Shown: positions 1,312-13,867, numbered from the stretch's first letter. The stretch: DNA of 13,867 nucleotides from Bacteroidia bacterium (GCA_030429455.1 JAUIFC010000103.1:1-13867), one strand, 5' to 3'. Notes: generated from the letters alone by a model not told the origin. Made by a program: numbers and translations.

Positions 1312-3372
1312 TTACTTTAATTTCTTATCACTTATTCCAAGTCCTTTTGCAAAGTTTAAAAGGTTAGAAATCATATTGCTATCTTCTCCATCGGCTTCTT
1401 TGTTCATTTTGAGTAAAAGATTTGCAATGCTTAGATTTTTTATATCTTCTGAACTGATGCCATAACGATCTGCCATTGCTTTTACTTTATCAATTAAGTT
1501 GCCTTGAACATCGCTATCGGTTAAAATGGCATCTTTAATATCTGTTATATTTTCACTATGGTTTACTAGCCTGTCAAATCCTTTTGAGGTTGTAATCTGA
1601 CCCATAATTTGCTCAAAGAACATGGTTTCTCCACCGACAATATCAATATTTGCAGTTTTCAAGGCTTCGGCTATAACTTTGGCTTGGGCATCTGCAATGT
1701 CTTTTTGAATGTTAACTTTAGCCAATTCAATTTGAAGTTCTTTATTCAACTTTAGCTTAAACTCTTCATGTTCTTTTCCAACACCATCAAGTTTCTTCAT
1801 AGCTTCTGCTTTTTCTTCGATTCCAGCGGCATCGGCAAGAGCTTTCTCTTTTATTACCTCGGCTTCTGCTAGGCCGTCTTTGCGTTTAGCATCTGCTTTT
1901 ACCTCAATGCCTTTGGCTTCTGCAATGGCTTTTTTCTCAATAATTAATGCGTCAACTAATCCTTGTCTTTCGTTGGCATCTGCTTTAGCGTGCATTACTT
2001 GAGCTTCGGAAATTCCAATTGTTGCTTCTTCTTTCGCTTTGGCTTCAGCAATGATTTTTCTTGCTTCTGCTTCTTTAGAGCTGGCCTCTTTTTTTGCAAG
2101 CGCTTCGATGTTTATTTCTTCAGCTTTTTGCTTCATGGCCTCTTTTTGTCCTTCTGCTTCCTTTATGGTTTTTATCAGTTGATCTTGAGCTTCGGCTTCG
2201 GCTCTAGTGATGGCAACTTGTTTCTCTCTTTCAGCCGTTTTGAAGGCTTGGATATCTTTCATGTTTTCTTGCTCTTCGACCACTCCTTTTTCTAGAGCCA
2301 CACGATCTCGTATAACATCTTGAATGTTTTTCTTTTCGACTTCGACCACTTTTTCTTTTTCGATTTGAGCAAGTGTTACGATACGTTCTCTTTCGGTTTC
2401 TTCAAGTGCTCTGTCTTTTTCAACTCGCTCTGTTTCTACAGCATTTGTGCGTTGTTTGTTTTTTTCGGCAACTATGATTTGACGTTGCATATTTTCTTCG
2501 GCCACTTTGACTTTTTCCTCTGTAGAGATTCTGGCAGATTCAGATTTTAAGCGTTCTTCTTCAGCGACTTTTAATATTTCTGCTTCTTCACGTGACTTGA
2601 TGTTGGCGATTTCTCTTTTTTGAGATTCTTCTTTTTCTGCCAACTGTCTATCGAGTTCAAGAATGGCTTCACGGGCTTCTACGTCTTGTTTGCGAATTAC
2701 TTTTTCTTCGTCACGCTTGATCAAGTTTGCCTTTTTATTTTGTTCAGCGGTTAGTTCTGTGATTTTCTTAATCCCTTCTGCATCAAGGATATTCGAAGCG
2801 CTTAAGAAATCAACTGGAGTTTGTTCTAAGTAATCGATAGCGCAATCTTCCAAAGTATAGCCATTAAGATCGGTTCCAATAATGTCGACAATTTCGTCTC
2901 TAAATTCTCTTCGAGCTTCGTAAAGTTCAGTAAATTCAAACTTCTTACCAACCGTTTTTAAAGCTTCAGAGAATTTAGCTTCAAAAAGTTCTTCTAAAGT
3001 TTTTATTTGTGAAGCTCTAGCGCAACCAATGGTTTGTGCTACTTTTTTAATTGCATCGACATCGTTATTTACTCGAACGAAAAAGGCGACTTTGATATCT
3101 GCACGCATGTTGTCGCGACAAATCAGTCCATCTCCTCCCAAACGTTCGATTTCAATTTTTTTAACTGAAATATCCATGATTTCCAGCTTATTAAAAACAG
3201 GAACAACATACATCCCTTGGTCTGTAGCGATTTTGGTCCCTTGAAATCCAGTTTTAACCAAGGCTTGTCCTTGCGGTACTTTTTTGTAAAATAGTGCTAC
3301 AATAATAAACCAAGTAGCGATTAGAAAAAGTACTAAACCTAATCCATAAAGTGCGAATGAAGATAAATCCAT
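1312..3372 (-). CDS. Flotillin / SPFH (band-7) family membrane protein of 686 aa. It resembles YqiK/FloT, with an N-terminal TM helix, an SPFH core and a very long E/A/K-rich coiled-coil.
   Basis: The N-terminus carries a hydrophobic helix (LYGLGLVLFLIATWFIIVALF). It is followed by an SPFH-like segment (VKTGFQGTKIATDQGMYVVPVFNKLEIMDISVKKIEI...). Hundreds of residues of EA/KE-rich heptad-like sequence follow (AEAEAQDQ, KEAEARKIIAEAKAKEEA), as is typical of YqiK-type flotillins. The gene is tightly coupled to the upstream nfeD-like gene through a 5-nt gap. Confidence 0.75.
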   Translation of the reverse strand: MDLSSFALYGLGLVLFLIATWFIIVALFYKKVPQGQALVKTGFQGTKIATDQGMYVVPVFNKLEIMDISVKKIEIERLGGDGLICRDNMRADIKVAFFVRVNNDVDAIKKVAQTIGCARASQIKTLEELFEAKFSEALKTVGKKFEFTELYEARREFRDEIVDIIGTDLNGYTLEDCAIDYLEQTPVDFLSASNILDAEGIKKITELTAEQNKKANLIKRDEEKVIRKQDVEAREAILELDRQLAEKEESQKREIANIKSREEAEILKVAEEERLKSESARISTEEKVKVAEENMQRQIIVAEKNKQRTNAVETERVEKDRALEETERERIVTLAQIEKEKVVEVEKKNIQDVIRDRVALEKGVVEEQENMKDIQAFKTAEREKQVAITRAEAEAQDQLIKTIKEAEGQKEAMKQKAEEINIEALAKKEASSKEAEARKIIAEAKAKEEATIGISEAQVMHAKADANERQGLVDALIIEKKAIAEAKGIEVKADAKRKDGLAEAEVIKEKALADAAGIEEKAEAMKKLDGVGKEHEEFKLKLNKELQIELAKVNIQKDIADAQAKVIAEALKTANIDIVGGETMFFEQIMGQITTSKGFDRLVNHSENITDIKDAILTDSDVQGNLIDKVKAMADRYGISSEDIKNLSIANLLLKMNKEADGEDSNMISNLLNFAKGLGISDKKLK

Positions 3373-3377
3373 AGTGT

Positions 3378-4136
3378 TTAATAGTTGTTTTTATAGGGTT
3401 GAACGTAAAAATATGTTTTTTCTGGACCTTGACGAATGATCAAGAAATTTTCGTTGTATGTTATCGGCTCTCCATTTTCTGATTTGATGTAAATAGAGTA
3501 AGGATTACCTTCAATAACCACTTTTCCACTGCCCATTTTTTTGTCCTTAATGTTAGAAAGACTAGTGCCTTGTCTACCAATAAAGTCAACAGGAGCATCC
3601 CCATCTTTGTTTAATTTTCTAAAAAAAGATTTGAAAGGATTTGAAAAGAATTTGCCTACAAATAAGGCTGGGATAAAACTCAAAGCCATGATAAAAAATC
3701 CAAATTGAGCATCGTGCAAGTGCAAAAATCCTGTGATGCCAACCGAAATAAGCCACCAAAAAAAGACGAGGCAAGTAAAAGTAAACATAAATGGTAAGCC
3801 AACGAAGTTGAAGTAAATTAGAAATACTTGCCACCATTTTAATGGTCTTTGCCTTTTGTTTATGACATCTTCCTTATTTACTTCGGTGTTTAGAGCGTCA
3901 TCTAGAGATGAGGTTTCCATAGCGGCAGAGGTGTCCAAGTCTGCATCAACATCGATATCAACGTCTACATCGACATCGAAGTCCACATCGAAATCTAGAC
4001 CGCTAAACATTGAAAACAGCCAATAAACCATTAATAAAATAACTAAAATGCTGAGGGCAGTATTTACAGGAGAAAAGAAAATATCTAACATGATAGCTTG
4101 ATTTTTTGGTTCGTTAACTAATGTATTGTTATACAA
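3378..4136 (-). CDS. NfeD-like membrane protein of the YqiJ/YuaF type, the usual partner of flotillin. It has an N-terminal TM helix, an acidic DV/DF repeat, further TM helices and a C-terminal soluble beta-rich domain.
   Basis: The gene sits directly upstream of a flotillin gene with a 5-nt gap, which is the canonical NfeD-SPFH pairing. It has hydrophobic stretches (ALSILVILLMVYWLFSMF, then WWQVFLIYFNFVGLPFMFTFTCLVFFWWLISVGITGFL). The C-terminus (GSGKVVIEGNPYSIYIKSENGEPITYNENFLIIRQ) is compatible with an OB-fold-like NfeD domain. Confidence 0.55.
   Translation of the reverse strand: MYNNTLVNEPKNQAIMLDIFFSPVNTALSILVILLMVYWLFSMFSGLDFDVDFDVDVDVDIDVDADLDTSAAMETSSLDDALNTEVNKEDVINKRQRPLKWWQVFLIYFNFVGLPFMFTFTCLVFFWWLISVGITGFLHLHDAQFGFFIMALSFIPALFVGKFFSNPFKSFFRKLNKDGDAPVDFIGRQGTSLSNIKDKKMGSGKVVIEGNPYSIYIKSENGEPITYNENFLIIRQGPEKTYFYVQPYKNNY
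3933..3995 (-). repeat. Imperfect hexanucleotide (GAYRTC)n tract encoding the acidic repeat DFDVDFDVDVDVDIDVDADLD inside the NfeD-like protein.
   Basis: The plus strand reads gtccaagtctgcatcaacatcgatatcaacgtctacatcgacatcgaagtccacatcgaaatc. Translated on the minus strand this gives alternating Asp and hydrophobic residues for 21 aa, placed between the first TM helix and the second TM block. Confidence 0.8.
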
Positions 4137-4324
4137 ATGAACAAAACCTTATTTGAAAATTTTAATCTTTTATTTTTTATTTATCATTTAAATTTCTGTC
4201 GAAAAATACTTTATGAATTAAGCATAAAAGAAGTTAACCAAATGCGACAAAATTAACGGCTACGATTTTATTTAAAATGAAAATACCAGAAAATTCTAAG
4301 AGTTCAAAAGTGTCCATTTTCAAT

Positions 4325-4351
4325 GTATCCCGATAGGAGATATCGGGATAC
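4325..4351. promoter_or_regulatory. Perfect 11-bp inverted repeat with a 5-nt spacer (GTATCCCGATA-GGAGA-TATCGGGATAC). It lies in the 298-nt spacer between pspA and the nfeD-like gene and is a candidate operator or attenuator hairpin.
   Basis: I verified the pairing by hand: positions 4325-4335 pair with 4351-4341 with no mismatch. The element lies about 85 nt downstream of the pspA stop and about 190 nt upstream of the nfeD-like start. No U-tract follows it in the minus-strand sense. Confidence 0.45.
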
Positions 4352-4434
4352 AGGGTTTTAAAAACTTCAATTTCAAGATGACATTTTGGTCTAAATTGGA
4401 ATACAACTTATGTTTTGATGTCATTCGGGTATGC

Positions 4435-5133
4435 TTAGTTGTTGTCTTCAGCAAGTTTTTTCTTAAGAGCAGCTAATTGATCAGATGCCTTTGTGGAAGA
4501 AGTGTCGGCAGCTTTGTTAATTTCTTCTTCGATCGAAGTATTACTTTCTGCGATTTCTCCATAAGCCTCTGCTTTAGCTTCTTCTTGAGCAACTTTGTCT
4601 CTCATTCTTTCGAGCATAGAAACGGTGCTGTTACTGTCTATTTGTGCCATTTGCTTATTAAGGTTGGTTTGGGCTTTACTGACTTTGACTCTCGATTTAA
4701 GCGTTCTCAATTCGTTTTCCCATTGCGAAATGGTACTTTTCAATTTATTAATATTGGCTTCAATCTCTTGGACAGACTTTATAGTCTTGTCGTATTCTGC
4801 TTTGGCCGTTTGTGCATTGGTTTCGTTTTCTTGCTTTTTAAGCAAGGCTTGTTCGGCTAATCGATCTTTATCTGCGTCAGCAATATCAGCTTTTTGTAAG
4901 ATGGCAATAGCTTTATGCTCGTATTGTTTAGCGCTTTCAGAATATTTCTTTTCGTCGTTTTTAGACCTGATGGTCATCGCTTTTACTTGAGCCAAGGCTT
5001 CGATGCTTTTGGCTAAATCTGCCTTTAAATCTCTAATGCCTTGTTCTGTCATTTTTATGGGGTCTTCCATTTTTTCTATAGCAGAATGTGCCTCTGCTTC
5101 ACCTATTTTGAATAATCTTTTGAAAATGTTCAT
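4435..5133 (-). CDS. pspA: PspA/IM30 family protein (phage-shock protein A, in the Vipp1/ESCRT-III superfamily), 232 aa.
   Basis: The N-terminus MNIFKRLFKIGEAEAHSAIEKMEDPIKMTEQGIRDLKADLAKS lines up with the PspA consensus [40 protein letters not shown]. The rest of the protein is all coiled-coil. Confidence 0.85.
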   Translation of the reverse strand: MNIFKRLFKIGEAEAHSAIEKMEDPIKMTEQGIRDLKADLAKSIEALAQVKAMTIRSKNDEKKYSESAKQYEHKAIAILQKADIADADKDRLAEQALLKKQENETNAQTAKAEYDKTIKSVQEIEANINKLKSTISQWENELRTLKSRVKVSKAQTNLNKQMAQIDSNSTVSMLERMRDKVAQEEAKAEAYGEIAESNTSIEEEINKAADTSSTKASDQLAALKKKLAEDNN

Positions 5134-5138
5134 GTGTT

Positions 5139-5531
5139 CTAATATTTTGAAAATTTAATAATTTGTTCTGCGTATTCGCTCATTAACAGACTGAGCGAGT
5201 TGAGGGTAGCTTCCAATTCCTCGATGTCTAAAGTATCTATTTGAAGCGTATCTCTAAAAATGACTTTCTCTCCTGTGTGGTCCAGTACGAAAGCGCCATG
5301 TACGATGTCTCTGTTTTTCTTCAATAGACTTTTAAAAATTTCATGCGAAGGATTTTCGACTTTAAATATGTATTGTTCTACAATTAGGATTGGTGGAGCA
5401 ATACCAAGAACAAGATTTTTAATGCCATGTTCTTCTTTTTGTATGACCAAAATGCCTTCTTTTTCCTTTTCGTGAGTTATGGTGTAGTCTAACTGCACCA
5501 AATATTCTTTGATATTTTCTGTGTAATTCAT
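5139..5531 (-). CDS. Small 130-aa cytoplasmic protein translationally coupled to pspA through a 5-nt gap. It may be a YbjN-like or other PspA-associated partner protein.
   Basis: An intact ORF ends 5 nt before the pspA start. It has mixed alpha/beta character (ILVIQKEEHGIKNLVLGIAPPILIVEQYIF ... EELEATLNSLSLLMSEYAEQI) and no TM segment. The family assignment is a guess. Confidence 0.5.
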   Translation of the reverse strand: MNYTENIKEYLVQLDYTITHEKEKEGILVIQKEEHGIKNLVLGIAPPILIVEQYIFKVENPSHEIFKSLLKKNRDIVHGAFVLDHTGEKVIFRDTLQIDTLDIEELEATLNSLSLLMSEYAEQIIKFSKY

Positions 5532-5691: not shown

Positions 5692-6366
5692 ATGTCGCAT
5701 TTTGGAACAAATATTAAAAAATTACGTCGGCTTAAATCGATGTCGCAAACAGAATTAGCAGACCTAATAGGCTTAAAACGAGGTGCTTTAGGGGCTTACG
5801 AAGAAGGTAGGAGTGAACCTAAGGTAGAAACAATAATTCATACTGCTAATTATTTTAGCATTTCGATTGATGGTCTTTTGACCAGAGAATTGTCGATAAA
5901 TGAACTTTTAAACTTCAATACAGACCTCACAACGGATGAAAGTCAGCTTAGAACGACCTTTCCTAAAATACCATTCATTACAAAATCGAACTACACAGAT
6001 TATGTAAAGTATTACAACAAGGAGAATTTTGTTTCCAAAATGCCCTATATGGAATGGCCTGTCGAAGAGGCGTCCAAGTCTTATCGGTTTTATGAAATAA
6101 CAGATTTGGAAATGAGTGATAATAAAGGAGGATTGTATCCTAAGGATATCATACTTTTAGAGAAAATTGAAATCAATGACATTTCAACACCTATAAAAGC
6201 TCTAGTTCTTTATGACGAATTAAGATTTAGGAATTTACACATTAGTGCCGAACAAGCAATACTTAAAGCAGAACATCCAGCTATTGAAGATGTTTTAATT
6301 CAAACCTCTGAAATCAAAGAAATATGGGCCTTGGTTGGTGTGTATCAAAAGTTTAGAGATATTTAA
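5692..6366 (+). CDS. XRE-family (Cro/CI-type) HTH transcriptional regulator with a C-terminal LexA/CI-like S24 peptidase-fold domain, 224 aa.
   Basis: The N-terminal sequence IKKLRRLKSMSQTELADLIGLKRGALGAYEEGRSEPKVETIIHTANYFSISIDGLL is a textbook XRE HTH. The C-terminal half parallels the LexA C-domain. EITDLEMSDNKGGLYPKDIILLEK resembles RVSGMSMKDIGIMDGDLLAV, and KEIWALVGVYQKF resembles IEGLAVGVIRN. Confidence 0.7.
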   Translation: MSHFGTNIKKLRRLKSMSQTELADLIGLKRGALGAYEEGRSEPKVETIIHTANYFSISIDGLLTRELSINELLNFNTDLTTDESQLRTTFPKIPFITKSNYTDYVKYYNKENFVSKMPYMEWPVEEASKSYRFYEITDLEMSDNKGGLYPKDIILLEKIEINDISTPIKALVLYDELRFRNLHISAEQAILKAEHPAIEDVLIQTSEIKEIWALVGVYQKFRDI

Positions 6367-9408: not shown

Positions 9409-12400
9409 TTGAAGTTGAAGTTAGTAAAACAGAAAAAATTATTCTTTACCGAAGGAAATTCTGACAAAGTTTATGAAGTAGATTTATGTGAAATTGATGA
9501 TTTATTTGTCGTAAATTTTAGATACGGAAGAAGAGGTAATAATTTACGCGAAGGAACAAAAACAGTATTCCCAGTTTCTTACGAAGAAGCAGAGAAAATT
9601 TACAACAAACTGATTGTTAGTAAAGAAAAAAAGGGTTACAAAGATACAATTGAAGTACCTGAAACTGCTGAATTACAGGAAGACGTAAATTCAGTTCAAA
9701 GAGATACTATTTTAAAGTATTTAAATCAAGCTTTGGAAGGGACTTATACTAGAAATTGGAGAGTTTCAAAAATTATCGCTAGAGTAGGAGCGCTTAACTT
9801 TAAAGAAGCAATGCCAACTGTAGCAAAATTCATCCATTCAAAGGATAGTTTTGAACAATACTACAGTATTTTAAATTTGATTTATTTTTCTGATTCTTCA
9901 CATGTTAAGGATGTGTTGGAATTATTTAAAATTTATAAATTCGAGACTATTGTCGGACGTGCTGCTGTTGCCTATGTTATAAAGTTTGGGAACAAAACTC
10001 AAATAGATGCCATAAAGTCGCATTTAGATGGGCTCATAAGCGAGGGCGATATTTCTAATCTAGCCGTAAAATTCATCAATGCCAAACCAAAAGATGCAAC
10101 GCTTCTATATTTTGCCTATTTGGTTTCTGTTATTCAAGGCAGTTACAATAAAGATCTTTACAATATTCTTCAGCATGTTGAATTCAAAGCCAATGTTTTT
10201 AAATCTGTCAGATATATTTATAGGACGGCATATTTGTTAAACGACATCTCAGTTTTTGCTTTGATATCTAAACGAATGGCGATGAGTAAACCAGGGTTTA
10301 CTTCAGAGTTTGTTCATGATGGTAAAGATTGGATTTATGCATCCCAAGAGCTTAAAAAACCAAACTCTAGCGTGGCGTTTTCATCCAAAACAAAGCAATA
10401 TTTCATCAATGATAATTACAAAAAATTATACTTATCAGGTGAGAGAGATAAAAATGGTTTTCTGCAACTCGCAAAAGCCATGTTGTGTTCTTTGGACGAT
10501 AATTATGATGATGCCAAGCAAAGAATAGATTACCATTACGAATACAATGAGCAAACCAAAAGATACAATTACGCAAACAAATATTTTCCAAAATACCACC
10601 AGTTTAAAGGCATCATGTACATTGTTTATGGAAATTCTGAGCGTTTTGCCAATAATAAAGGAATGTGGTTTGATTCCTCTGAGAATCATCAATCCAAGCG
10701 AGAAGAAGTATTTCCTGAACTATGGAATAACAGTCCAAAAGAGGTTATAGAAATACTGGTAAATTCCAAAAGCCAAGTTGCGACTGCATTTGCACTAAAT
10801 ATTTTGAATGAAAAGCCTGAGTTTTACGAACTCCTCACGCCAAGTGATGTCATTTTGTTATTGCAAAAAGAAGATCAACAAATAGTTGAAGTCGTATTGA
10901 ATTATATTAAAACAAAATATAGCATTTCGAAACCTAATGAAGAATTAGTTATTAGCCTGTTTAAATCTAAAAATCAAAAGGCCATAGATTTAGCCATCAA
11001 CTGGTTTAATAAATTCAAACTAGATTATGTCAAAAGCAAGTCATTTACTATAGGTTTAGTCTTGTCAAATGAACTAAGGGCCATAGAGGTTTTAACATCA
11101 AATGTCAATGCTTTTTCAAAGCAAAATTTCGAAATTTCAATTGAAGATGTTTTAGGTTTATTTGAAAATCCACAACTATTTACCCCTCATTTTTTACAAG
11201 CTGTTTCAGAATTAGTAGGAAATACAACTTTTGGAAAACTGATTAAGGGCGTGAAAAATAGTTTTATTATTCAGCTTTCAAAATCAGCGGTAGACAGCAA
11301 CAAGGTTTTTGCTGTAAGTTTTTCAAAAATAGCTTTAGAATCTACTTATGATTTGTTTAAAGATTCATATGCTGATTACATATGTTCTGATAATCCATTT
11401 TTAAGGCAAGCAGGTATTGAGGTTTTATCACAATTTCCAGATTCATTTTTAATTGAAAATAAAGAGGACTTGATCCTGTTTAGTTTTTCTGAATTTCAGG
11501 AAATAAGGAAAGCAATTATTCCAACATTGACTAGACTAATAACTGTTGATAGAGAAATCAAAACGCGGTTGCAAAGGCAATTAATATTTCAACTCACAGA
11601 GGCAGAGACATATGAAGGTCTTCATGAGGATTGTTATGAAACTTTAAAAGAATTATTTGGACGTTCCTTAGCAAATTTATCTAAAGAAGATATTGTTTTT
11701 CTTGTGCTCTCAAAGTATGAATTTGCTCAAAAATTAGGAACTTCTGTATTTGATAAAAGAATAGCACTCAGCAGTCTAGATGTGCAAACCTTAGTGAGTT
11801 TGTCAAAAAGTGATGTCTTGGAAATTCGTAATAAACTTAAGACTTATTTTGAAAATAATGTTGTAAGAATTAGCTACGAATTAGATTCAGCAATACATGT
11901 TTTCAATACGTCTTGGGATGATGTCGTTACATGGGCATGCGACTATTTTGAGCAAAGGATTGACAAAAATAAATGGTCTGCAGAAACATTAATTTACATC
12001 TGCGACCACATAAACGAAACAGTTCAGCAATTTGGTAGACGAATGATCACACAGTATTTTACAAACGAAAAAGGTCTGCCAATACTTTTAAAACTTCAAG
12101 AACATCCAGATAAGGACATGAAATTTTTTGTTTCCAATTATTTAAACAATTACGCGAAAGATAATGTTGAGGTCATTTTAAACCTTGAAGCGTATTTTAC
12201 TTCAATTTTATTTAATATAAATTCTCACAGGTCTTCTAAGACTAGAGTTTATAAATTTTTAGAATCAGAATCTTTAAAGCACAAAGAAGTTGCGTTGTTG
12301 ACGGTAAAAATTTTAAGTTTGATTATGGGATCAAAAACACTAACGGATAGAGATGAAGTTTTAGATATATTTTTAAAGCTAAAAGAAACCTATGAAGATT

Positions 12401-12435
12401 TGAACATTCCATTATCCATAAAAATGATTAGCTAA
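9409..12435 (+). CDS. WGR-domain protein of 1008 aa. The N-terminal WGR domain is followed by about 900 aa of helical/HEAT-like repeat region, making it MolR/YehI-like. A C-terminal DUF4132-type domain is suspected.
   Basis: Residues about 10-80 read LFFTEGNSDKVYEVDLCEIDDLFVVNFRYGRRGNNLREGTKTVFPVSYEEAEKIYNKLIVSKEKKGYKD. This matches the WGR signature (SDKFYEV … RWGRIG … EEA…KL…KGY). The only start available after the upstream in-frame stop at 9385-9387 is TTG 9409. The remainder of the protein is helical repeats. Confidence 0.8.
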   Translation: MKLKLVKQKKLFFTEGNSDKVYEVDLCEIDDLFVVNFRYGRRGNNLREGTKTVFPVSYEEAEKIYNKLIVSKEKKGYKDTIEVPETAELQEDVNSVQRDTILKYLNQALEGTYTRNWRVSKIIARVGALNFKEAMPTVAKFIHSKDSFEQYYSILNLIYFSDSSHVKDVLELFKIYKFETIVGRAAVAYVIKFGNKTQIDAIKSHLDGLISEGDISNLAVKFINAKPKDATLLYFAYLVSVIQGSYNKDLYNILQHVEFKANVFKSVRYIYRTAYLLNDISVFALISKRMAMSKPGFTSEFVHDGKDWIYASQELKKPNSSVAFSSKTKQYFINDNYKKLYLSGERDKNGFLQLAKAMLCSLDDNYDDAKQRIDYHYEYNEQTKRYNYANKYFPKYHQFKGIMYIVYGNSERFANNKGMWFDSSENHQSKREEVFPELWNNSPKEVIEILVNSKSQVATAFALNILNEKPEFYELLTPSDVILLLQKEDQQIVEVVLNYIKTKYSISKPNEELVISLFKSKNQKAIDLAINWFNKFKLDYVKSKSFTIGLVLSNELRAIEVLTSNVNAFSKQNFEISIEDVLGLFENPQLFTPHFLQAVSELVGNTTFGKLIKGVKNSFIIQLSKSAVDSNKVFAVSFSKIALESTYDLFKDSYADYICSDNPFLRQAGIEVLSQFPDSFLIENKEDLILFSFSEFQEIRKAIIPTLTRLITVDREIKTRLQRQLIFQLTEAETYEGLHEDCYETLKELFGRSLANLSKEDIVFLVLSKYEFAQKLGTSVFDKRIALSSLDVQTLVSLSKSDVLEIRNKLKTYFENNVVRISYELDSAIHVFNTSWDDVVTWACDYFEQRIDKNKWSAETLIYICDHINETVQQFGRRMITQYFTNEKGLPILLKLQEHPDKDMKFFVSNYLNNYAKDNVEVILNLEAYFTSILFNINSHRSSKTRVYKFLESESLKHKEVALLTVKILSLIMGSKTLTDRDEVLDIFLKLKETYEDLNIPLSIKMIS

Positions 12436-13867
12436 ATGAAGTTCAATTTTAAATACAGTGGAAGCAGTTCTGTACACAATAGTTCGAATTCTACAGGGCT
12501 TAGTTTTGCACCTGATGTGCTTAGAGAACCTACCTATTTTGTTGGTAGTTTAGATAAAAAGTTGCCATTTAGGGAAGCCATTTCTGCGTTGCATCACGTT
12601 GTTACCGCAGACTTTAATTTTCAACCTAAAGACAATACAGAATATCTGGCATGGTTAAAAAGTCAAGAAGATTTATGGCTGGCCGAAGGAACTTCCAGAC
12701 TCAAAGGTATTGATACAGAAATACATCAATTAAAGGAAAAACTTGAAACCTTAAGGTCTCAAAGAGATACCATTACCCAACCTTACTACAAAGCCCAACG
12801 CAAATATTTTAGATATTTATATTTAAGAGATTATACGGCTTGGCTTGTTTTGGACCCTGTGATTACGGTACATCCAGACCAATTATTTTTTGAATGTTTT
12901 AGCAAAGATGAATCCGTTTACGGCAAGCTGTCTTGCGGATATGATGTGTTTAAAGAGGTTAATGAATTTAAATGCGGAACGACAAACATCGATTATTCAA
13001 AAAAACTTTACAATGAGTTTCAAAAAATAAGAACGTATAAACAAACTGATTTCAAGATAGACCCATCAGGTTTTGATGTTCAAACAAGTGGAGAAGATGC
13101 TTACAAAGAAGTAAAAATCGATTTGCCTGATAGCTGGGTAAGAGGATTTCTTCAAGTCAGTACAGCAATGACTCAAAACAAAGTGAGTTTTGATTTACAT
13201 CCGATAGACATTTTTAACTTTATTTCAGTTTTAAAACGAAATAAAGAAAAGCATGGACCAAGAGCTATTAAATATGTTTTAGAACCAGGTAAACCAATCG
13301 AAGCTATTTTTGAACCTTGGAATATCAAAATAGTATGTTCAAATTCAATATTTAGGGGTGATGAAAAACAAGAAGTCCGCGTTTGGGGAAGGCGAAGAAT
13401 TACATTGTTAGAGCGATTATTACCAATTACTTCTAGATTTACTGTTCATTTATTGGGTACAGGATTGCCTTCATTTTATATTGCTCATTTATCAAATGAC
13501 ATGTATTTTACCTTAGGTTTGTCAGGTTGGACTGCAAACGACTGGACAAAATCTACAAGTCTGGATTTATTAATGTCTAAAGCAAAAGTGCCATCGACAA
13601 CCATGCAAAGAATTTATTTGGAATTGAGAAAAGACTGGTTTAATACACCTGAAAAACTTTCTAATGCCATGTCTATAGAAAGTGCAGATATCCATCAAGC
13701 GTTAAGAACATTTACACAAGCTGGAAAAGTGGTTTACGACCTAAAGAATGAAGTTTATAGAATTCGAGAGTTAAAACGGGATGGTATAGACCTTGAAGAT
13801 TTAAAATTTACAAGTGAAATTGACAAAGAGGCTTATAAACTTATGAGTACAGGTCAGGTGAACATCA
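12436..13867 (+). CDS. Uncharacterised protein of at least 477 aa that runs off the right edge. It is translationally coupled to the WGR gene and is a candidate YehQ-like partner. No SWIM CxCxnCxH motif is visible in the part that is present.
   Basis: The ATG at 12436 immediately follows the TAA stop of the WGR gene at 12433-12435. The frame stays open to the window end. The translation begins MKFNFKYSGSSSVHNSSNSTGLSFAPDVLREPTYFVGSLDKKLPFREAISALHHVV. It is absent from the ORF track only because it has no stop in the window. Confidence 0.65.
   Translation, partial: MKFNFKYSGSSSVHNSSNSTGLSFAPDVLREPTYFVGSLDKKLPFREAISALHHVVTADFNFQPKDNTEYLAWLKSQEDLWLAEGTSRLKGIDTEIHQLKEKLETLRSQRDTITQPYYKAQRKYFRYLYLRDYTAWLVLDPVITVHPDQLFFECFSKDESVYGKLSCGYDVFKEVNEFKCGTTNIDYSKKLYNEFQKIRTYKQTDFKIDPSGFDVQTSGEDAYKEVKIDLPDSWVRGFLQVSTAMTQNKVSFDLHPIDIFNFISVLKRNKEKHGPRAIKYVLEPGKPIEAIFEPWNIKIVCSNSIFRGDEKQEVRVWGRRRITLLERLLPITSRFTVHLLGTGLPSFYIAHLSNDMYFTLGLSGWTANDWTKSTSLDLLMSKAKVPSTTMQRIYLELRKDWFNTPEKLSNAMSIESADIHQALRTFTQAGKVVYDLKNEVYRIRELKRDGIDLEDLKFTSEIDKEAYKLMSTGQVNI

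Follow-up and report, generated by a model that had tools for sequence, protein, structure and literature searches.

The two open reading frames (ORFs) at the 3' end of a 13,867-nucleotide stretch of DNA from a Bacteroidia bacterium (GCA_030429455.1, JAUIFC010000103.1:1-13867; the whole stretch is called the window hereafter) are accessory genes belonging to a type XIII retron, whose four-part cassette comprises a gene for a WGR-HEAT/ARM protein, a gene for a SWIM protein, an msr-msd RNA and a reverse transcriptase (RT) gene. The locus is a new flavobacterial member of a retron type that had already been catalogued, and it is labelled directly as such by PADLOC. Taken as a whole, the explanation offered here, which joins the type XIII assignment to a proposed mechanism, is in our judgment very probably correct. 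The assignment by itself is nearly certain: all four parts are identified and their order is conserved. The mechanism is drawn from the workings of other retrons.

Identification of a type XIII retron

Type XIII retrons, catalogued in 2020, are defined by a clade-10 RT, a cluster-114 protein with a DEDE motif, a winged helix and a SWIM finger (CxCx12CxH), and a cluster-216 protein that joins a WGR-like domain to HEAT/ARM repeats, and they include Retron-Mxa1 (Mx162), Mxa2 (Mx65), Sau1 (Sa163) and Nex2 (Ne144) (Mestre et al., PMC7736814). The window is identical at 13867/13867 bases to a stretch (L001) of a 79-kb public contig, on which the sequence could be followed in the 3' direction (window position = L001 position minus 586). 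There the WGR gene is followed by the SWIM gene, a 260-nucleotide gap with a structured RNA, and the RT gene, and each of the three proteins is matched over its full length by a PADLOC model for type XIII. The cassette contains a clade 10/RT_XIII RT, an msr-msd RNA, a cluster-114 SWIM protein and a cluster-216 WGR + HEAT/ARM protein, and it resembles the type XIII retrons of Mestre et al. in the N-terminal extension of the RT, the features of the SWIM protein, the WGR-HEAT/ARM architecture, the a1/a2 RNA and the gene order. It differs from the Mx162-type retrons in its host, a flavobacterium near Tenacibaculum, in its AT-rich sequence and conserved TTG start codon, and in that its branched single-stranded DNA (msDNA) is predicted only. 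The features of the cassette are as follows.

9415..12435, plus strand: gene for the WGR + HEAT/ARM accessory protein, 1006 amino acids (PADLOC WGR_XIII, E = 1e-264, full length)
9451..9648, plus strand: WGR (YGR-variant) domain, residues 15-80 (Pfam PF05406)
9691..12390, plus strand: HEAT/ARM-like helical solenoid, residues 93-992
10309-10674, plus strand: beta-rich insert in the solenoid, residues 299-420
12433..12438, plus strand: TAA/ATG junction, with the WGR stop codon immediately followed by the SWIM start codon
12436..13867, plus strand: SWIM accessory gene, first 477 of 542 codons (PADLOC SWIM_XIII, E = 1.3e-199 for the part in the window)
12436..12843, plus strand: N-terminal extension of the SWIM protein, residues 1-136, with short strands and long helices at 68-137
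12844..13530, plus strand: core of the SWIM protein, residues 137-365, predicted two-domain PCNA-like clamp fold
13588..13770, plus strand: winged-helix domain of the SWIM protein, residues ~385-445
L001 14666-14899, outside the window, plus strand: msr-msd-type RNA, with inverted repeats and covariation
L001 14911-16413, outside the window, plus strand: RT gene, 500-amino-acid product (Pfam RVT_1, PADLOC RT_XIII)

The SWIM gene leaves the window after 477 codons, and a preliminary description of this DNA was right that the partner of the WGR protein has at least 477 residues and continues further: on L001 the gene spans 13022-14650, ending at the window-equivalent position 14064, and encodes 542 amino acids. 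The full-length product matches PADLOC SWIM_XIII with E = 2.8e-221.

The RNA and the reverse transcriptase

The intergenic RNA, with about 38% GC in an AT-rich locus, has 14-nucleotide inverted repeats (a1 at L001 14668-14681, a2 at 14884-14897) and an msd-type hairpin with 46-nucleotide arms (L001 14742-14853). When 12 flavobacterial loci were aligned over this region, column identity was 81%, and RNAalifold found 74 pairs, with compensatory changes in 20. Ten of the 12 sequences served to build a covariance model, which had a plus-strand match in 29 of the 34 loci studied (L001 and 33 further loci from a genome scan with the SWIM protein), other phyla included. In the alignment of the best 30 matches, which was itself fitted to the covariance model, a caveat that applies to all of its covariation figures, 94.1% of the cells were paired, 64 of 77 pairs had changed on both sides, and the covariation score was 0.713, compared with 0.08-0.12 when the pairing partners were slid by 1-3 columns. 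The folding z-score was -9.1 for the RNA and -9.3 for the strand complementary to the hairpin when folded as DNA. No retron or other family in Rfam matched the intergenic RNA. The microRNA models mir-101 and MIR5048 fell on the msd hairpin (L001 14760-14835) with E ~0.6 and were set aside as chance matches, which arise because the hairpin is long and near-perfect.

A near-invariant G lies at L001 14692, directly 3' of the extended a1/a2 stem, and by analogy with other retrons it is a candidate for the branching and priming residue; if it does branch, the msDNA would measure about 125-145 nucleotides. Besides, a box with the sequence TATATTTG is found six bases upstream of a1 (L001 14655-14662, window-equivalent 14069-14076), in a stretch conserved in the 12 flavobacterial loci. 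It fits the -7 promoter consensus of Bacteroidota, TAnnTTTG, and since it is conserved in all 12 loci it suggests a putative promoter belonging to the RNA and RT themselves.

The RT scored E = 1.8e-181 with RT_XIII, the best among 41 retron RT models in PADLOC. Besides the Pfam RVT_1 domain, it carries NAKLH, YVDD and VTG, the signature motifs of retron RTs. Its closest solved relative is the RT of retron Ec86 (E = 2e-44), and because that alignment begins at residue 135, the protein has an N-terminal extension of about 130 amino acids.

Comparison with the Yeh cluster

The preliminary description had interpreted the two ORFs as possibly the start of a MolR/YehI-like, nucleoside triphosphate-dependent module, in which a WGR-DUF4132 protein is encoded together with a SWIM protein (YehQ), a MoxR-type ATPase (YehL) and a VWA protein (YehP). 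Such a reading builds on shared domain names, given that the giant protein begins with a WGR domain and its neighbour has a SWIM finger, and in the Yeh cluster (YehF/YehH, WGR; YehI, DUF4132; YehL, MoxR; YehM, DUF5682; YehP, VWA; YehQ, SWIM), these two domains also occur in large neighbouring proteins. It is nevertheless almost certainly wrong. The profile search that was expected to return both WGR and DUF4132 for the giant ORF returned WGR above its cut-off but no DUF4132 at E up to 1, although YehI, the positive control, scored 2.1e-47; DUF4132 was also missing from the 120 homologues listed. The giant protein showed no similarity to YehI (BLASTP E = 0.077; hhalign probability 0.06%). When the Yeh cluster of E. 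coli K-12 was used as a control, YehF scored for WGR and YehQ for an N-terminal SWIM finger; the resemblance of our SWIM protein to YehQ (BLASTP E = 0.86; hhalign 4%) did not extend past the zinc finger, and in our protein this finger is C-terminal, at the other end from that of YehQ.

The gene neighbourhood leads to the same conclusion. Downstream of the pair lie the retron RNA and the RT gene, followed on the opposite strand of L001 by housekeeping genes of the Ham1, ACBP, phosphatidylserine decarboxylase, CdsA, FtsH, RsfS and BirA types. No MoxR AAA+ or VWA gene was present within 10 kb on either side on the extended contig, and none is among the gene clusters that recur in the 34 loci. The locus also lacks DUF5682, whereas the Yeh cluster has neither RT nor RNA. 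The Yeh-like reading fails because the downstream genes are unrelated to those it predicted, and a literature search for work linking WGR, SWIM, MoxR and VWA found nothing relevant. Two broader ideas of the same description have held up better: that of a functional partnership between the WGR and SWIM genes is upheld, and the suggestion of a conflict system agrees with the listing of this pair among the catalogued candidates for defence systems.

The WGR-HEAT protein

Read from its first TTG, the ORF at 9409..12435 (plus strand) encodes 1008 amino acids, while on the identical public contig the gene caller placed the start at the second TTG, 9415, and predicted 1006. An exact look-up with the longer form, whether with leucine or methionine as first residue, had no match, and the 1006-residue product was matched. 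The family consensus at the N-terminus, MKLxKQK, agrees with a start at 9415, and TTG stands at the homologous start codon in 13 loci (window 9415; L002-L012, L023). For these two reasons 9415 appears the best placed start, in preference to the in-frame TTG at 9409: the TTG initiation that had been proposed is retained, and its position is shifted by two codons. The SWIM and RT genes start with ATG, as does the WGR gene in more distant loci. The TTG codon may serve to keep expression of the WGR-HEAT protein low.

Pfam PF05406 recognizes the WGR domain at residues 15-80 with 25.1 bits, against a curated cut-off of 22, and the AlphaFold2 model has four strands and a helix in residues 1-72, as expected for this fold, so that the WGR domain noticed earlier is well founded. 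The signature motif reads YGR instead of WGR, and F35, R36 and G38 are invariant across the family. The model also supports a HEAT/ARM fold for the long run of helical repeats that had been described behind the domain. Invariant residues cluster in the WGR head and in the last ~200 residues. To call WGR rare in bacteria is a weak claim, since this family alone has more than 1000 database homologues, named 'WGR domain-containing protein'. Sequence and profile searches of the Protein Data Bank (PDB) with both accessory proteins gave nothing meaningful, and no solved relative could be recognized by sequence. As a lead, the WGR protein may be regarded as a non-catalytic scaffold.

The SWIM protein

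The SWIM finger that had been foreseen in the partner protein lies just past the end of the window: Pfam SWIM matches residues 501-534 of the full-length protein, and the C-terminal zinc finger reads C514-x-C516-x12-C529-x-H531. An acidic motif, D140-x7-D148-x4-E153-x32-D186-x38-E225, is invariant in 46 sequences. Together with the winged helix, this central DEDE motif and the CxCx12CxH finger correspond to the definition of cluster 114.

The structure was considered through the model of a 96%-identical full-length homologue, which is of moderate quality (mean predicted local distance difference test score, pLDDT, 65.5; block means of ~81-96 over residues 250-360; below 50 at residues 134-143 and 171-233). 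Among the top 50 Foldseek matches, all were PCNA except one, a viral sliding clamp, with E ~2e-5, a template modelling (TM) score normalised to the target of ~0.5 and nearly the whole PCNA chain aligned. In this moderate-confidence model, residues 250-362 form exactly two beta-alpha-beta-beta-beta units. Residues 137-365 are predicted, at the level of the model, to adopt a PCNA-like clamp fold. Compared with PCNA, 9-1-1 and beta sliding clamps, the core shares 7-12% sequence identity and gives no profile hit, and its polypeptide chain also includes a coiled-coil N-terminal part, a winged helix and a SWIM finger.

It has been proposed that the SWIM protein derives from a DDE transposase, on the basis of the DEDE motif and of a SWIM finger in a MULE-like position (Mestre et al., PMC7736814). 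If so, the protein could be a transposase-derived, DDE-type nuclease that acts as a DNA-cutting toxic effector. The invariance of the acidic motif in the 46 sequences, and its retention for the most part in homologues that lack an RT, speak for such an enzyme, but two independent fold comparisons placed sliding clamps alone at the top and listed no transposase or RNase H-like protein, and the PDB profile searches brought up no transposase either. We consider this alternative improbable. As no such protein occurs in the fold lists, the published transposase origin is not supported at the fold level, as far as the model can tell. The acidic cluster is still the best candidate for a putative catalytic or metal-binding site, and the clamp-like scaffold may hold a catalytic site, with the acidic motif falling in the least confident region of the model.

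Conservation across related loci

Gene recurrence in the 34 loci, determined by tblastn and ORF clustering, is restricted to three genes, SWIM (34/34), RT (33/34) and WGR-HEAT (30/34), which are on the same strand and in the same order throughout; at the single RT-negative locus the contig ends inside the SWIM gene. The hosts comprise Flavobacteriaceae, Chitinophagaceae, Myxococcota, Verrucomicrobiota, Desulfuromonadaceae, Planctomycetota and an Enterobacterales metagenome-assembled genome (MAG). The full order of WGR, SWIM, RNA and RT is repeated in about 30 loci, which come from at least six phyla. The abutting TAA-ATG junction described earlier was confirmed at 12433-12438, and close spacing is the rule: the distance from WGR stop to SWIM start is -17 to +14 nucleotides in 26 of 30 loci, with an 11-nucleotide overlap repeated in several phyla, an arrangement consistent with coupled translation. 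The four exceptions (L019-L021 and L024, from Chitinophagales/Bacteroidota MAGs) have the RNA between the WGR and SWIM genes, as tandem full-length pairs in L019 (9430-9675 and 9715-9960) and L020 (9377-9622 and 9715-9960), and at 5411-5656 in L021 and 9718-9905 in L024.

In the flavobacterial loci L002-L011, identity to the query is 40-49% for WGR-HEAT, 66-77% for SWIM and 63-70% for the RT. The closest relative has 84% (WGR-HEAT) and 96% (SWIM) identity, with both representatives apparently on one 8.9-kb contig. The flanks of the query show no synteny with those of related loci, save for a distant match to Ham1 at three of them.

SWIM homologues that lack an RT gene beside them

Further SWIM matches were found in Diaphorobacter, Chondrinema, Streptomyces and Asticcacaulis, with 23-25% identity over residues ~138-540 only (L036 8752-15085, L037 8800-13083, L038 6785-10730 and L039 6782-11070). 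No RT is annotated within the 7-9 kb flanks of these four loci, whose lineages are unrelated to one another. Homology to the retron SWIM protein is firm (hhalign probability 99%, E = 7e-18, residues 137-535; PADLOC SWIM_XIII 5e-58 on an RT-less homologue), and most of the acidic motif is kept. Each of these genes lies directly upstream of a gene for a giant helical protein of 790-980 amino acids, which belongs to DUF6493/DUF7824/DUF7825 in three lineages and is an unnamed 810-residue hypothetical protein in Streptomyces. The pairs resemble the retron locus in placing a homologous SWIM gene beside a giant helical gene, the two genes overlapping or lying a few bases apart in three records out of four, and differ from it in their reversed gene order and in the lack of an RT, a WGR domain and the N-terminal extension. 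They may represent an uncharacterised stand-alone two-gene module. When WGR-HEAT was compared with the DUF6493 partners in hhalign, both from single sequences and from a five-sequence profile, the probability was 0.1-0.2%, and no similarity was detectable; an ancient SWIM + HEAT module is therefore supported on the SWIM side only.

A full-library profile search returned 1393 SWIM-family clusters at 50% identity, many of which match only from residue ~137. Residues 1-136 are absent from the four RT-less homologues examined, where hhalign and tblastn alignments begin at ~137-140, and for this reason the N-terminal 136 residues mark the RT-linked form in the loci examined. The SWIM protein and the RT may touch each other through this segment and the N-terminal extension of the RT, which are both candidate contact sites.

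One could argue from the RT-less pairs that WGR-HEAT and SWIM constitute an autonomous two-gene system that merely lies beside a retron and has no link to the RT, as SWIM homologues adjoin giant helical proteins in four lineages (the DUF6493 family in three). This is very improbable. The RT adjoins the pair in 33 of 34 loci, the exception being the truncated contig; in some loci (L019-L021, L024) the RNA is placed inside the pair, between its two genes; the retron-linked SWIM proteins carry their specific N-terminal extension; and RT, RNA and accessory proteins have been reported to co-evolve (PMC7736814).

Proposed mechanism and biological role

According to recent reports, retrons work through an RT-msDNA complex that sequesters an effector until a phage trigger appears (PMC12548924, PMC12819146). 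By analogy, the type XIII RT would prime on the RNA at the conserved G 3' of the a1/a2 stem, for which L001 14692 is the candidate, and would copy the long msd hairpin into msDNA of ~125-145 nucleotides, and the two accessory proteins would assemble with RT and msDNA into one particle. The accessory modules are of the nucleic-acid-binding or scaffold kind only, namely a WGR reader of DNA ends, a HEAT solenoid, a predicted PCNA-like core, a winged helix and a SWIM finger. The particle would guard against phage, such that damage to or modification of the msDNA would free or switch the accessory pair, which would then act on DNA through the acidic cluster or by clamp-like binding. That the output of the pair is directed at DNA is a guess. 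For a role of the locus in phage defence, which we also draw by analogy, we regard the chances as evenly balanced.

Known retrons offer partial parallels. Ec86/Eco1 (type II-A) and Ec78/Eco7 (type I-A) have a homologous RT and the same combination of RNA, RT and accessory protein(s), and the accessory module of type I-A also has RT-less relatives, as Ec78/Eco7 co-opted the Septu PtuAB module. Their effectors, however, are recognizable (nucleoside deoxyribosyltransferase-like in one, ATPase plus HNH nuclease in the other), whereas the present locus encodes no recognizable effector enzyme.

Several observations weigh against a defence role. Apart from the RT, the three proteins have no recognizable toxin or enzyme domain; in the WGR-HEAT protein no catalytic domain was detected, and Pfam found nothing notable besides WGR. 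PADLOC returned generic helix-turn-helix (HTH) matches only for the nine proteins upstream in the window, and no defence island was seen around the cassette, which is flanked by housekeeping genes. In tblastn searches there was no homologue in 50,697 phage records, and plasmid matches were limited to non-mobilizable plasmid records of 74 kb to 2.8 Mb, among them a full cassette in Clostridium butyricum (a 978-residue protein, a 602-residue SWIM homologue and an RT). Compared with most retrons, the system has less of the appearance of a mobile defence island. Moreover, Mestre et al. reported for type XIII a correlation of 0.78 with 16S and suggested both vertical inheritance and useful cellular functions other than defence (PMC7736814). 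Our literature search found no experiment on type XIII function or on Mx162 effectors, no structure of the accessory proteins of this type, and nothing on a link between retrons and clamps.

The main rival to defence is accordingly a domesticated, vertically inherited retron, whose msDNA particle would take part in repair, replication or regulation of host DNA. In addition to the genomic context and the inheritance just described, this explanation would account for the 70-79% identity of the SWIM protein across many Flavobacteriaceae genera, the upstream synteny common to Tenacibaculum species and the resemblance of the domains to DNA-damage sensors (WGR and the predicted PCNA/9-1-1-like fold). 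On the other hand, the flanks of the query differ from those in Tenacibaculum, WGR-HEAT diverges much faster than SWIM and RT (the identities given above), as expected under conflict, the retron types characterised in the literature searched are all antiphage, and retron deletions in Myxococcus are not known to cause a growth or developmental phenotype. We consider domestication rather unlikely on balance.

Other genes in the window

Four co-oriented genes on the minus strand (window 1312-5531) apparently form a membrane-stress module unrelated to the retron and without PADLOC hits. According to precomputed Pfam assignments, they encode a Band_7/flotillin-like protein of 686 amino acids, a protein of 252 amino acids with no Pfam hit, a PspA/IM30 protein and a CesT-like chaperone-fold protein. 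On the plus strand, window 5692-6366 encodes a 224-amino-acid HTH_19/HTH_3 (XRE-type) protein with weak PADLOC matches to generic HTH regulators from defence systems, namely HTH_VI, RmrA and control proteins (best E = 5e-9). As these matches cover the ~70-residue HTH region only, they are probably not meaningful.

Implications for type XIII retrons

The earliest retrons to be described, Mx162 and Mx65, are of type XIII, and in a metagenome survey of 2026 this type was the third most abundant retron group, with one of the broadest phylogenetic spreads. The present locus adds a compact flavobacterial example with close relatives in cultivable marine genera. Close homologues are found in Cellulophaga baltica, a species with a large phage collection. 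The locus also removes a false lead, as the cassette is unrelated to the MoxR/VWA Yeh cluster. Besides, it provides new leads in the clamp-like SWIM core, the scaffold-type WGR protein, the RNA with a candidate priming G and the RT-less relatives of the SWIM protein.

A further, doubtful reading would see type XIII retrons as machines for the surveillance of DNA structure instead of toxin-antitoxin devices, with the SWIM protein as a PCNA/9-1-1-like clamp and WGR-HEAT as a reader of DNA ends mounted on a solenoid. Their built-in ligand or decoy would be the hairpin of the msDNA, which has a branched 5' end and a DNA-RNA junction. In evolution, the RT would have joined an older two-gene module without an RT, made up of a clamp-SWIM protein and a giant helical protein, that survives by itself in several phyla. 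If this were true, the Mx162-type retrons, now 40 years old, would gain a mechanism unlike that of any retron studied.

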